A stretch of 64,000 nt of DNA from Deinococcales bacterium (GTDB lineage Bacteria; Deinococcota; Deinococci; Deinococcales; JAAFIG01), in assembly GCA_043778225.1 (NCBI GenBank), contig JAYWGM010000066.1:1-64000 (forward strand), given 5' to 3'. The translations under genes were made by a program, and so were the position numbers. The notes under the pieces are model-generated. The model had not been told where the DNA came from. It saw only the letters and a program-made list of their open reading frames with translations, and did not search any database. Below, one piece after another: positions 1 through 64,000 of this stretch (the first letter of the stretch is position 1; every line of letters starts with the position of its first letter).

Positions 1-160
1 TACCAAGTTAAGGTGTACGTTTCACTTAAAAATCTTTCATGAATTTTACGAATGCGTCAGTCAAGCAAATATATTCTCATTGAGATGAATCATACGAGAG
101 TGATTAAGTTAATTCAGTATGACTCGAGAGAATGGGATTTACCCGAGAGGTGTAAACATA

Positions 161-197
161 AAATCACCCTACACTCGAGAACAGTGCAGGGTGATTT
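161..197 (-). terminator. Probable intrinsic terminator downstream of toxB-like lipoprotein gene 1
   Basis: Inverted repeat AAATCACCCT(A)CAC...GTG(C)AGGGTGATTT just past the stop at 216; T-rich tail on the minus strand. Confidence 0.65.
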
Positions 198-215
198 GTC
201 TGTGCAAAAAGCAGT

Positions 216-2597
216 TTATTGTAGCGGAATACCTATAACTTGAGTGGCAGTGGCTGTTTTTGCTGGTGTACTAATATCCGATGTGGTGATGGTAATTTGG
301 TAGGCTACTCCGCTTTGGGGGTAGGTGTGGGTAACTTGAACAGCGAGGGCTGCATTGCCTGTTAAGACGGTGTTGGCACTGCCATCACCCCAGCTAATCA
401 CGGTGTTCTTTAGGTTTGGATTGGTGATATTGGCAACTGCAATCACCAATCTTGCGCCGACATTGATCACCCCTGCCCCAAATGACTTGATGACTGGAGC
501 AGTAGCTGGCGTGGTTGAGTCGGTGTCCAAATCATCGGTGATGTTGTCACCATCGGTATCTGGGTTGAGTGGGTTTGTACCTTTGGTCTTTTCTTGGCTG
601 TCGGTTAATTTGTCGCCGTCGCTGTCTACGGCTTTAGGGTTTGGGAAAACTTGTCTCGAGACACCTTTAACGGTAATAAACCAACCAATTCGCACTTCGC
701 TAAAGTCATCTATACCATCTGCATCCGAGTCTTTTACGGTGTCTGAAGTTCCCAAGTAATACTCTTCGCTCTCGAGTAAACCATCTGAATCGGCATCTCG
801 AATCAGCATAAAACGCACTTCGGAACCCGCTTTAATCAGAATATCGTCTACATTGACTCCATTCATGTTTAAGTCGTTTGATCCAACTGTCACCCAGACC
901 GACTTAGGGTCGGTAACTGTTTTGCTGGTGATAACCGTACCTGTTTTTTCTTCCTTAATACCACTGATGACTTTTAAGTTGGTCTTGGAGTCGGTCAAGG
1001 TGGTGTAGGTCAAACCAAGGGTGTCTTTTAGGGCTTTGCCAAGTTTAATACCAACAATTTTGCCGTTGACCCGTTCAACATTGGTCGCCACACGCTGGCG
1101 GATGGTATTGCCGTTGCCGTAATCAATCACCACATAGGCAGTTTGTCCGTTGGTGGTGTCGTTCTGGAACTTAAAGCTGCGGTTGTCAGCATCTAAAATA
1201 TCGTAGCCCGCCAATTCAAAACGCAGATTGGCGGGGTTTCGCATGACCGCAATAGCTTCGTCAGAATTGGTAAAATCGTAAGTCGCGGCTAATGTACCAG
1301 AGGTTTCATTGACTCCTAAAGTCAGGTTTGCCAAGGTGGTCATGTTGCCAACTAAAATAAATTTGGTTGGGTTTTCGGTATCACGGCGCAAGACCGAGAT
1401 ATTCAAGCCAGATAACTTAAATCCAGCTTTGCCTGTGTTAGACACCTTAAAACCAACGGTCATTTTTGCCCCAGAAATCTGTTTGCCTGTAGCAGAACCC
1501 AAGGTTCGGGCTTCCTCAGAGGTTTTTTGGGTATTTTGGCTAGATTCAGACGTAAAACTCTTGGTATTTTCGGTGCCATAACCCGCCGTGGCGGTTACAC
1601 TGGCAGAAGCGGTCACACCTCCCGTTAAGCTGGCTTCGGCTTCAATGCCAACTGTGGCACTAATCTCGGCACTAAAACGTTCGGTGTTTGTGTCGGTGCT
1701 GCTGTTACTCGAGCTTGTACCAAGACTTAAACTCGAGGATTTGGTGGCTTCCACAGTTTGAGTTGCCGTATTGACAATGTTTAAGCTGATGCTTGGTGCA
1801 GAAGCAAAAGACAATTCAAAACGTGGTGTGTTGGCAATCAGTGGCTTAGAAGCCAAGACAATCGTTTCTTGGTGGTCGCTGAGTCCATCACCATCGGTGT
1901 CTGCCAAGACTGGCGAAGTGCCGTAAGTAGAAAGTTCATTGCCATCAAACAAACCCGAATTGCCCTCGGAGTCTTTATCCGTGTCTACATCGGCGGCATT
2001 GCTGACCCAAGTGTTGACTTCATCAGCATCTTTTAAGCCGTCCGCATCGGTATCATCTGATTTTGGATCAAGGAAACGGGTTCGTTCTTGATTATCGTTT
2101 AAGCCATCATCGTCAGTATCGGACTTACTAGGGTTCGAGGTGACTTTACGGGTTGAAAGTTGCGCCCCACCCTGAGAAATTTTCACATCCCAACCTGCCA
2201 ATTCATCGGTACTCGAGACACCATCACCATCTGGGTCTGCACCCGCCCCAAGCGGCGTACCAGACACCAACGCAGGGGTTGGACTGGGTCCTTTGACATT
2301 GAGGGCTTTTAAGGCATAACTATAGGTCGTGCCAGTCGTTAAACCAGTGTCGGCAAAGGTATTGGTGGTTGCATTTGGTGTGGCAATCTGGGTTTTAGCA
2401 CCAGCCGCAATGCCACGCTCGAGAACATAACTGGTTGCGCCAGAAACCAAATTCCACGATAAGTTAAGTCCTGTAGCCGTGACACTCGAGACCACAAAAT
2501 TTGAGGGTGTGGCAGGTAAATCACTGATAGCTGCCGGACAGGCAACCAAAGTGATTGCCAGTAATGGAACAAGTAAAAAAAGAAATTGTTTTTTCAT
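216..2597 (-). CDS. Lipoprotein with FN3 domain, Ca-binding DxDxDG repeats, anthrax PA/binary toxin B-like core and C-terminal PKD-like domain
   Basis: 793 aa ORF with RBS (AAGGAG) and lipobox LVAC; FN3 motifs (LNLSW...Y...GLTTGTTYSYALKA); DPDGDG/DTDxDG repeats; PLIANTP, Ser/Thr-rich hairpin, KVSNTG and TAYVVIDYG..QRVAT..LGKALK resemble PA63; ISWGDG...HTY is PKD-like. Confidence 0.8.
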   Translation of the reverse strand: MKKQFLFLLVPLLAITLVACPAAISDLPATPSNFVVSSVTATGLNLSWNLVSGATSYVLERGIAAGAKTQIATPNATTNTFADTGLTTGTTYSYALKALNVKGPSPTPALVSGTPLGAGADPDGDGVSSTDELAGWDVKISQGGAQLSTRKVTSNPSKSDTDDDGLNDNQERTRFLDPKSDDTDADGLKDADEVNTWVSNAADVDTDKDSEGNSGLFDGNELSTYGTSPVLADTDGDGLSDHQETIVLASKPLIANTPRFELSFASAPSISLNIVNTATQTVEATKSSSLSLGTSSSNSSTDTNTERFSAEISATVGIEAEASLTGGVTASASVTATAGYGTENTKSFTSESSQNTQKTSEEARTLGSATGKQISGAKMTVGFKVSNTGKAGFKLSGLNISVLRRDTENPTKFILVGNMTTLANLTLGVNETSGTLAATYDFTNSDEAIAVMRNPANLRFELAGYDILDADNRSFKFQNDTTNGQTAYVVIDYGNGNTIRQRVATNVERVNGKIVGIKLGKALKDTLGLTYTTLTDSKTNLKVISGIKEEKTGTVITSKTVTDPKSVWVTVGSNDLNMNGVNVDDILIKAGSEVRFMLIRDADSDGLLESEEYYLGTSDTVKDSDADGIDDFSEVRIGWFITVKGVSRQVFPNPKAVDSDGDKLTDSQEKTKGTNPLNPDTDGDNITDDLDTDSTTPATAPVIKSFGAGVINVGARLVIAVANITNPNLKNTVISWGDGSANTVLTGNAALAVQVTHTYPQSGVAYQITITTSDISTPAKTATATQVIGIPLQ

Positions 2598-2665
2598 GTG
2601 GAGTCTCCTTAACTAAAAACAGGGCGTTTGTAAAAATAGCTCGAAAAGTAATCTGAAACACATAT

Positions 2666-62784: not shown

Positions 62785-62930
62785 AACATCCCCCAATTTT
62801 CAGCACAGAATAAGCCGCATCAATAGTTCGGAAATTGCCGAATTACGAAACTGAACAACTGGAGCTTATTGTCTACGATGCCCTAAAGAAATACCATTCT
62901 TACTTGCTACCTAGCATTTGCAAGGGGTAG

Positions 62931-63494
62931 TCACTGCCTGTCCAACACATGGTCTTGTCCCCAGAACCAAAGTGCAAATTGGGTTCGGTTAGCAATAATT
63001 GTGCTTGGGCTTGCTGCTCTAGCTTTCTCGAGAACTTCCATCACGGCTTTTCTTGTCGCATCTGGTTCTTTACCAACTAGCAAACCAATTTCTTTACTCT
63101 CTAAGCCTCGAGCCAATTCTCGAGCAATGGTTAATTCTCGAGGCGTAAATTTAACTTTTGGTTTTGGTACATTTGAGTACGTTTGGTTGTTTTGAATGAT
63201 GGCTACAGCTTCAGCAATAGAATCCGCACCGTTGCTGTTAAAAATCATGCCTTCTGGTTTGAAGCCTTCTAGGCATTGAAGATACGCCGAGCAAGCATTA
63301 TCGGTAATGACCACGGTGGGTTTTGGTTTGCCGTGTTTCTCGAGGTAACGCAGGGCTGTTCCCATTCGGGCATCTATCAGTACGATTATTTCTGAATTTG
63401 AACAAATTTTATAACCCAGTGCAGCAATGTATGTCTCGAGTCCCGTTTTGAATTTGGGCATTTCACAAATGAGTTGCAGACTTGGTTTGTTCAC
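62931..63494 (-). CDS. LuxR/NarL-type regulator with degenerate receiver domain
   Basis: FTPRELTIARELARGLESKEIG, NRTQFALWF; GTG start after GGAGGA. Confidence 0.78.
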   Translation of the reverse strand: MNKPSLQLICEMPKFKTGLETYIAALGYKICSNSEIIVLIDARMGTALRYLEKHGKPKPTVVITDNACSAYLQCLEGFKPEGMIFNSNGADSIAEAVAIIQNNQTYSNVPKPKVKFTPRELTIARELARGLESKEIGLLVGKEPDATRKAVMEVLEKARAASPSTIIANRTQFALWFWGQDHVLDRQ

Positions 63495-63737
63495 AATTCC
63501 TCCCATAAATTTGCAAAAGTATAGCACCCCCCCCTCTATTTTTTTGCAATACGACAGTTTTATACCGTTTAGCACAGTAAAAATCAATTTAAAGTATTCA
63601 AAAATAATGGCTCGAGAAATCACTTACAACACATCATCTGTGCCTCGAGCTTTGCGCTTCATGGCTTTTCGCCGCCAGCGCAGGGCAGTATTCACGGCGC
63701 TCGAAATTAGAGATTGAGGAAAATTTTATAGGCACAT

Positions 63738-64000
63738 TCACACCGCTATCCGTAAACTGGCGCGTTCGCAAAGTACCTCGAGAACTTCAAACATACACAG
63801 CACTTGGTACTGCCGCACCCGAGCCGATTCAAGCACTGCTGTCTCGAGCCACAGACTGCCCTGAACTTCGTCGTAGCTGCTGCTTAAATTGCCACGAAAG
63901 TCGTCGAGGTGCGTGACCGACCAAACCCGCACCCCACTAAATTCAAAAGAACAAGTTTCTGAACCTGTCCCACCTTCGGAAGTGTACTCGAGAAAAAGAG
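63738..64000 (-). CDS. Hypothetical protein, 5' end outside the window
   Basis: Open frame from the window edge: LFLEYTSEGG...FEFSGVRVWSV...YQVLCMFEVLEVLCE. Confidence 0.55.
   Translation of the reverse strand, partial: LFLEYTSEGGTGSETCSFEFSGVRVWSVTHLDDFRGNLSSSYDEVQGSLWLETAVLESARVRQYQVLCMFEVLEVLCERASLRIAV

Follow-up and report, generated by a model that had tools for sequence, protein, structure and literature searches.

The closest described counterparts of the sequence bias reported here are the highly iterated palindromes (HIPs) of cyanobacteria. HIP1 (GCGATCGC) and its alternates are palindromic words that occur genome-wide, both between genes and, within them, in every reading frame; observed-to-expected ratios are 55–228 for HIP1 and 32–70 for the alternates (table 2 of Elhai 2015, PMC4390886). 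The cause of HIP1 has been debated for 30 years, mainly around a methylation-dependent model. Here the hexamer CTCGAG was analysed in a 64,000-base stretch of DNA from an uncultured member of the Deinococcales (contig JAYWGM010000066.1, positions 1 to 64,000, hereafter the window) and in the genome containing it, G000. CTCGAG shares the above properties with the HIPs at a comparable enrichment of 27–48x, and in both cases lineage-specific variants surround one core; the variant GCTCGAGC of one relative, G027, also has the GC...GC frame of HIP1. It differs from HIP1 in phylum, in core (TCGA versus GATC) and in density, with 6,170 copies of the 6-mer per Mb versus 300–2,700 per Mb for HIP1. Unlike those of HIPs, its individual positions are weakly conserved. 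No cognate methyltransferase was found for CTCGAG, whereas PMC4390886 reports such an enzyme for all alternate HIPs and for the majority of genomes with HIP1. By palindromic over-representation, occurrence in all frames and orthologous retention CTCGAG belongs to the HIP class, but not by association with a methyltransferase. It is not HIP1, as GATC is avoided in G000 (0.13x) and CGATCG occurs at 0.2x.

Part of this picture is shared by other known words. Chi, the site read by AddAB or RecBCD, is likewise an over-represented self word that needs no methylation, and the presence of AddAB, its conserved pocket region and its coarse distribution match CTCGAG. Unlike canonical Chi, CTCGAG is palindromic, appears to lack polarity and, judged from sequence, meets several counter-examples in the AddAB profile. 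DNA uptake sequences (DUS) and uptake signal sequences (USS) resemble CTCGAG in accumulating after gene arrival, in doubling a peptide, in being densest in weakly expressed genes and in having a competent host (PMC2817400); CTCGAG differs from them in being a six-base palindrome without extended consensus and ~7x denser. The orphan methyltransferases M.Mhy14884I, M.Mru1279II and M.Mch9957IV have the same CTCGAG target, in the same order and in lineages with 5–11x enrichment (PMC4752239), but they are patchy across the order and were not found in the family of G000. The Nocardia CTCGAG case described in the same source is a cluster at oriC and not genome-wide.

No published account of the CTCGAG word, or of Chi in Deinococcota, was found in a literature search that had most subscription journals outside its coverage, and the abundance of CTCGAG is apparently undescribed in print. 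The word constitutes an independent HIP-type system in another phylum, denser and protein-changing, that persists where no cognate methyltransferase was found. Its strength and flanks vary over the order, with a natural loss in a Deinococcus-like family. Because the order includes the tractable, naturally competent Thermus and Meiothermus, models based on recombination, uptake and repair are separable with existing strains.

Strength and nature of the CTCGAG bias

The window holds 348 copies of CTCGAG (5.4/kb), against a mean of 8.75 and a maximum of 17 in 100 dinucleotide shuffles and ~14.6 copies, or 0.23/kb, predicted from base composition. By frame these fall 187/66/62, with 33 outside called genes. 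An initial annotation of the window had described the word as hugely over-represented in all three codon phases and between genes, with 14 copies in a crtI-family coding sequence (CDS), all of which was recovered here; of the 14 copies, the Leu-Glu frame accounts for 11, the xxC-TCG-AGx frame for 3 and the third frame for 0.

The bias extends over the whole of G000 (4,029,277 bases in 107 contigs, 89% complete, 16S not assembled), which contains 24,877 CTCGAG, or 6.2/kb, at densities of 4.0–10.6/kb in every contig. This represents an enrichment of 27x over base composition and 15x over a second-order Markov model, where the runner-up palindromic hexamer reached 1.9x, and of 48x between genes over a motif-masked Markov-2 model. 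The intergenic density was 5.7/kb versus 0.18 expected (~30x). In 3,751 genes (own gene calls) the three frames contained 13,576, 4,423 and 4,475 copies versus ~1,730, 390 and 330 after three synonymous codon shuffles, an excess of 8–13x in each. The sole point in favour of an artefact of codon usage, dipeptide usage or assembly is that 60% of coding copies lie in the Leu-Glu frame. Such an artefact is practically ruled out by the excess in all frames and between genes, by the reverse dipeptide Glu-Leu at 0.98 and by the presence of the word on 107 of 107 contigs and in 19 of 19 family genomes. The proposal in the initial annotation that a HIP-like pressure acts on DNA and not on protein therefore holds, and the enrichment withstood the Markov correction as well as the control for codon and dipeptide usage, with relatives also enriched.

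Leu-Glu is nevertheless the most over-represented dipeptide of G000 (2.33x). CTC-GAG encodes 13,576 of its 19,597 Leu-Glu pairs (69%) versus ~2% from codon use elsewhere, and this share lies at 0.69–0.74 throughout ten deciles of ribosomal-protein codon score. The Leu-Glu excess climbs from 1.97 to 2.56 as the score drops. Sites are favoured independently of one another, with odds of about 50–150x whatever the expression of the gene, and this per-site strength resembles that of HIP1. The word-poorest native genes, identified by eye, mostly encode proteins that contain few Leu-Glu pairs and belong to the solute-binding, surface and pilus classes. Long gaps between copies are mostly low-GC islands, and DNA gains CTCGAG after entering the host.

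Positions of the word turn over. Of 490 aligned CTCGAG sites, 271 (55%) were kept in relatives versus 11–32% for all hexamers per genome. At 559 aligned Leu-Glu pairs in 172 gene pairs of G000 and its relative G013, the word was present in both genomes at 201, in G000 only at 219, in G013 only at 50 and in neither at 89. The resulting positional odds ratio at the codon level was 1.6, which indicates a statistical equilibrium and not fixed functional positions. For polymorphism, no RNA data set and only contigs were listed as holding this DNA, the two holders possibly being its source, and they gave no strain variants of use.

The single-base neighbours of the word were also counted between genes. 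Transition neighbours were enriched, at 1.84 for TTCGAG (C1), 2.19 for the T2 transition and 1.92 for CTTGAG (C3), and the six transversion neighbours were near background (0.83–1.21). The pattern was less clean in a 400-kb sample of G013 that combined coding and non-coding DNA (TTCGAG 1.47, CCCGAG 1.95, CTTGAG 0.81). The equal enrichment of the C1, T2 and C3 transitions leaves no sign of a methyl-C hot spot, and we read the pattern as ordinary transition decay and restoration instead of a hot spot or a ratchet driven by Vsr. A Dcm/Vsr very-short-patch ratchet is unlikely, since a search of 5 genomes yielded Vsr in 0 and its T:G precursors CTTGAG (1.92x) and TTCGAG (1.84x) are enriched, not depleted.

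No extended consensus surrounds CTCGAG, the flanks being flat to 40 bp, and no spacing periodicity was detected up to 300 bp in pair distances examined to 1.2–2 kb. For HIPs a quasi-periodic spacing at tens of kb has been described (Xu et al. 2018, PMC5861425). The lack of a period and the weak conservation of positions, which turn over between genera, argue against an architectural role, and the suggestion of chromosome organisation in the initial annotation is accordingly not supported. Close pairs of CTCGAG are scarce at distances of 7–15, 16–30 and 31–60 bp, with ratios of 0.41, 0.78 and 0.89 in G000 and 0.44, 0.72 and 0.93 in G013 and a decay length of 25–30 bp. This deficit is a poor indicator of a protein footprint, as it is absent between genes (0.99, 1.44, 0.99) and about half of it is general hairpin avoidance in coding DNA. 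Coding GC-rich inverted hexamer pairs are avoided generally (0.53–0.62, 0.82–0.87 and 0.85–0.88, compared with 0.35, 0.69 and 0.85 for CTCGAG). In the genes of G000, short inverted hexamer pairs are avoided (0.53–0.76 at 7–15 bp) and direct pairs are in excess. Other palindromes are extremely avoided in this genome, with 131 copies of GGCC (0.01x) and 1 copy each of GACGTC, AGGCCT and GGGCCC; because of this avoidance its proteome is short of Gly-Pro (0.35x) and Trp-Pro (0.1x).

Distribution and flanks across the order

The distribution of the word was surveyed in 131 genomes of the order, with enrichment for relatives computed from sampled DNA of 6–95 kb. Genus-type labels such as Meiothermus-like and Thermus-like are those we take to apply to these genomes. 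Density was 4.3–6.8/kb in all 18 other genomes of the G000 family, 0.3–3.4/kb in three further families and 0.01–0.27/kb in the family f3 (30 genomes), which appears to be Deinococcus-like from its size, GC and missing AddAB. Enrichment reached 5–11x in Meiothermus-like genomes, 4–6x in two genomes of family f4 and 5–33x in AT-rich genomes of family f2, and merely 1.3–4.4x in most GC-rich f2, g15 and Thermus-like genomes. Enrichment of the word thus extends through a large part of the order, and what is family-specific is its high density alone. The lineage specificity put forward in the initial annotation therefore stands for the density and falls for the word itself. In practice CTCGAG can also be used to bin sequences and to date gene transfer within the Deinococcales group.

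Flanks are lineage-specific. Many Meiothermus-, Marinithermus- and Truepera-like genomes have enriched forms with flanks of their own lineage, such as GCTCGAGC and CCTCGAGG. In Thermus-like genomes 94% of CTCGAG flanks are C, giving CCTCGAGG, and other TCGA contexts are avoided. The 3,131 hexamers of G027 comprise 2,645 GCTCGAGC (84%), 364 with one G flank and 122 with neither, and in G053 the octamer accounts for 940 of 1,531 CTCGAG (61%). The Truepera-like G027 (locus L567), with a strict octamer GCTCGAGC at 0.88/kb and no C5 methyltransferase, is the closest counterpart to HIP1 in the order. No flank preference was found in G000 and G013. A density of 6/kb on a flank-free word in the G000 family versus ~1/kb for some relatives using the 8-mers GCTCGAGC and CCTCGAGG would fit a pressure of HIP strength acting on a word relaxed from eight to six letters.

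Mobile DNA carries the word as well. The type I-E CRISPR array of G000 (G000:C80:16-2690) has 43 unique spacers, none of which matched the genome elsewhere at E<1e-3, and CTCGAG is found in 10 of the 43, or 8.4/kb, a host-like density (P 5e-13 versus composition). The spacers mirror the word bias of the host, with 10 CTCGAG, 1 GGCC and 0 GATC. No protospacers were found in GenBank phages, and no phage with the family signature was seen among the long IMG/VR loci listed and examined. CTCGAG occurs at 2.6/kb (6x) in the Meiothermus phage MMP17 and at 2.4/kb (3x) in the Oceanithermus plasmid pOCEPR01.

Candidate mechanisms and readers

We infer, tentatively, that CTCGAG is a HIP-type word spread by a methylation-independent molecular drive coupled to homologous recombination, and this applies to both the process and its reader. 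It is our favoured reading and lies close to the uptake signal suggested in the initial annotation, taken as an uptake or recombination signal. A host protein would read unmethylated CTCGAG on DNA under resection or recombination, either in transformed DNA or at breaks that are repaired from another chromosome copy, and alleles that carry CTCGAG would be retained more often than alleles that lack it. Relaxed flanks may cause the density of the G000 family; transitions erode sites, and positions turn over. For HIP1, homologous sites have been reported to raise transformation even when unmethylated (bioRxiv 2024.09.10.611283).

The sole candidate that can be named as reader is the AddAB helicase-nuclease, which would make CTCGAG a palindromic Chi. 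We consider this rather unlikely and give no lower probability to some other, dimeric reader within that pathway. AddB was found in 17/18, 29/30, 22/23 and 28/29 genomes of the four word-holding families, against 4/30 weak matches in f3, of which two examined were a divergent pair without conserved motifs. Among f2 genomes at least 90% complete AddB was present in 77/79, tallies that include one unpublished genome, G199, on which no conclusion depends by itself. One of the two exceptions, G120 (96% complete), has no AddA, no AddB and no enrichment (27 CTCGAG in 94.6 kb, 1.4x, GC 48%), compared with 5–33x in its AT-rich kin with AddB; the other, G154 (470 contigs), has no AddB match and a normal count. 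According to PMC11143384 and PMC9751324, Deinococcus lacks addAB and the AddAB of Thermus attacks incoming DNA. No Chi sequence for Thermus AddAB was found in the literature consulted.

AddA, AddB, MutS and MutL are present in G000 by Pfam match and ComEC is also present; DprA, ComM and PilT were detected by short motif only. Motif scans of the G000 gene calls for RecA, UvrA, RecD and ComEA gave no match, these being crude patterns that are no sign of absence. AddB of G000 matches PF21445 and aligns with B. subtilis AddB, and its predicted fold is B. subtilis AddB-like (pLDDT 79, top Foldseek E 1e-28). Residues at the positions of the Chi-binding helices, known from the B. subtilis structures 3u44 and 4cej (PMC4614115), vary little or not at all among 28 aligned relatives. 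By a weak pairwise alignment, the G000 family has Asn and Tyr at the R70- and F210-equivalents where most relatives have Gln and Phe. CTCGAG with its lineage flanks could, doubtful as this is, be the bidirectional palindromic Chi of a compact Deinococcota AddAB, protecting itself in every resection or conversion. The word would have run away to 1 per 160 bp in the family with the two changed AddB pocket positions, and Deinococcus would have lost it upon losing AddAB. If true, AddAB would be the first protein cause named for a highly iterated palindrome. In G000, addA and addB lie apart (G000:C79:31198-33813 and G000:C32:43473-45914) and in most relatives they are adjacent; no neighbour of addAB was conserved in >5 of ~40 loci. 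G000 addB stands behind recN and is followed by two small genes, which we take to resemble XisH/XisI. The protein has no Pfam nuclease match, though four cysteines are invariant. The Oceanithermus conjugative plasmid L646 (NC_014753) has its own addB-addA-like pair.

Several observations weigh against a recombination-coupled drive read by AddAB. AddB is present with little enrichment in G023 (1.3x), G123 (1.6x) and G219 (1.8x), the first Chi-helix motif of AddB looking altered in G219, and was not found in G098 and 5 of 7 g42 genomes, yet their counts match those of their kin. G120 is also without ComEC, and since there are two losses only, the AddAB profile cannot separate AddAB from competence. 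The requirement of both flanks in the G027 octamer suits a symmetric double-strand reader over single-strand Chi reading, and the AddB pocket motifs of G027 are those of kin with other flank preferences. Word flanks and variants showed no consistent polarity with GC skew or replichore, the skews being weak. A Chi 'catchment' model, based on summed neighbour distances, fitted site use far worse than nearest-neighbour models. The lytic Thermus phage P23-45 has only 0.12 CTCGAG per kb (50 of 84 kb). The HIP1 effect persisted in Synechococcus after addAB had been knocked out, and none of the known Chi sites is a palindrome (bioRxiv 2024.09.10.611283).

A homodimeric double-strand protein acting at replication and not at recombination, with mismatches resolved towards the word or bound sites being beneficial, for instance for chromosome organisation, is a somewhat unlikely alternative. 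It would account for the symmetric flank changes (the 84% and 61% of GCTCGAGC in G027 and G053 and the 94% of C flanks in Thermus-like genomes), for the uniform strength over expression classes and for transversion neighbours at background with transitions at ~2x, as expected of all-or-none recognition combined with mutational decay. Host-replicated phage and plasmid DNA also has the word, which is missing from the lytic phage that encodes a polymerase of its own. No candidate protein was found, however, in a search that was not an unbiased genome-wide one and that covered 400 kb of the 5.09 Mb of G013. No relative of a TaqI- or PaeR7I-like endonuclease was found, and G000 gave no match to the XhoI family, for which the control was equally blank. 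Inspection by eye of the top codon-adapted small genes revealed no unusual abundant basic protein, and the missing period to 300 bp and the weakly conserved positions speak against an architectural role. A role as DNA uptake sequence, in which pilus or uptake proteins would favour word-bearing fragments in the manner of the DUS of Neisseria and the USS of Pasteurellaceae, appears rather unlikely. It gains from the competence genes of G000, from the doubling of Leu-Glu, strongest in weakly expressed genes, as reported for uptake sequences (PMC2817400), from the joint lack of ComEC and enrichment in G120 and from a report that HIP1 abundance tracks secretion and uptake genes (PMC13756078). It is at odds with the flat flanks to 40 bp and with the missing saturation at the kb scale, though one site per fragment should suffice. 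Uptake sequences, which we take to be asymmetric and of 9–12 bp, also contrast with a 6-bp palindrome. Deinococcus radiodurans has ComEC and its family is without the word. In G000, moreover, the word is scarce in the pilin locus itself. No relative was found in the PDB for the pilus-tip protein.

The initial annotation had suggested a methyltransferase- or Vsr-driven origin. A ratchet linked to methylation, whether by the Elhai G-meC mismatch-repair model or by a Dam-like orphan N6-methyladenine (m6A) enzyme that was missed or has become a relic, now seems quite improbable. In its favour, m6A enzymes that are active on CTCGAG and lack a restriction partner are listed for Marinithermus hydrothermalis, Meiothermus ruber and M. 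chliarophilus in table S3 of Blow et al. 2016 (PMC4752239); the same table lists no enzyme with a CTCGAG target for M. silvanus. These are probably two unrelated gamma-class proteins, TaqI-like in Marinithermus and PaeR7I-like in Meiothermus, to which the REBASE names would correspond. The octamer GCTCGAGC parallels GCGATCGC, and all genomes are metagenome-assembled and 57–94% complete. A TaqI-like methyltransferase was found in 19/131 genomes, but in 0/18 family genomes and not in G000. All 17 of 17 Thermus-like genomes (genus g9, loci L141-L151) have it, several loci being without an adjoining endonuclease. Close PaeR7I-like matches occur in 9/131 genomes, with weak ones only (26–39% identity) in 4/18 family genomes. 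No C5 methyltransferase was found in G010, G027, G128 and G129, and the single-contig G013 gave no beta-class match. Beta- and alpha-class matches in five family genomes, mostly in low-GC, word-poor cassettes, contained no group common to all, and gamma-class matches varied in size and number between genomes in a partial pairwise comparison. Pfam-type profiles applied to these incomplete genomes thus gave no methyltransferase of the C5, beta, alpha or gamma class common to the family. Because no common methyltransferase or Vsr was found and transition neighbours are enriched (~2x for the C-to-T neighbours), a methylation or very-short-patch ratchet is unlikely; the missing preference for a flanking G in the family adds to this. 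G000 itself has at least 20 methyltransferase or restriction-modification genes.

Features of the window

The coordinates of the features in the window are collected in Table 1. Both hairpins whose loops had been said to hold the word are real inverted repeats. They are no evidence in themselves because the density of the word is already 1 per 160 bp, and overlap of CTCGAG with hairpins is favoured anyway by its palindromic nature. Genome-wide, 80 of 266 intergenic hairpins contain CTCGAG versus 39 expected.

Table 1. Location of the CTCGAG word and of related features in the window
Feature	Position	Strand	Basis
CTCGAG word, 348 copies	1..64000; first 123, last 63987		Motif count
Intergenic inverted repeat, CTCGAG 174-179 within loop	161..197		Direct reading
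Intergenic inverted repeat, CTCGAG 3716-3721 within loop, last base inside 3' arm	3701..3730		Direct reading
crtI-family carotenoid desaturase CDS, 1,476 bp	19063..20538	+	TIGR02734 above cut-off
Native-GC gene with 1 CTCGAG only, sugar-binding by position and N-terminus	52029..53288	-	No NCBIfam match at 1e-10
Longest CTCGAG-free stretch, ~2.4 kb, GC 37%, low-GC genes	59562..61934		Motif count and GC; no Pfam/NCBIfam match

The longest stretch without the word is, from its GC, probably a recent acquisition, showing that the word is added after arrival. Three low-GC genes at 59756-62796 (-) have lipoprotein-like N-termini and no Pfam or NCBIfam match and are almost without CTCGAG. The native-GC gene with a single copy probably exemplifies highly expressed genes that are short of Leu-Glu opportunities, expression being judged from the class of gene.

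No Rfam families and no tRNAs were found within the window. A beta-CASP protein is encoded at 56785-58419 (+), its top NCBIfam match being the type VII CRISPR Cas14 model with 372 bits versus a cut-off of 800; its neighbours are a ribokinase gene on one side and a CorA-like gene on the other, and no CRISPR array lies close to it. The RES-type toxin of a bacterial toxin-antitoxin pair is found at 10161-10631 (-), above cut-off, and a VapD-like gene at 16529-16987 (+) directly follows dnaK-grpE-dnaJ.

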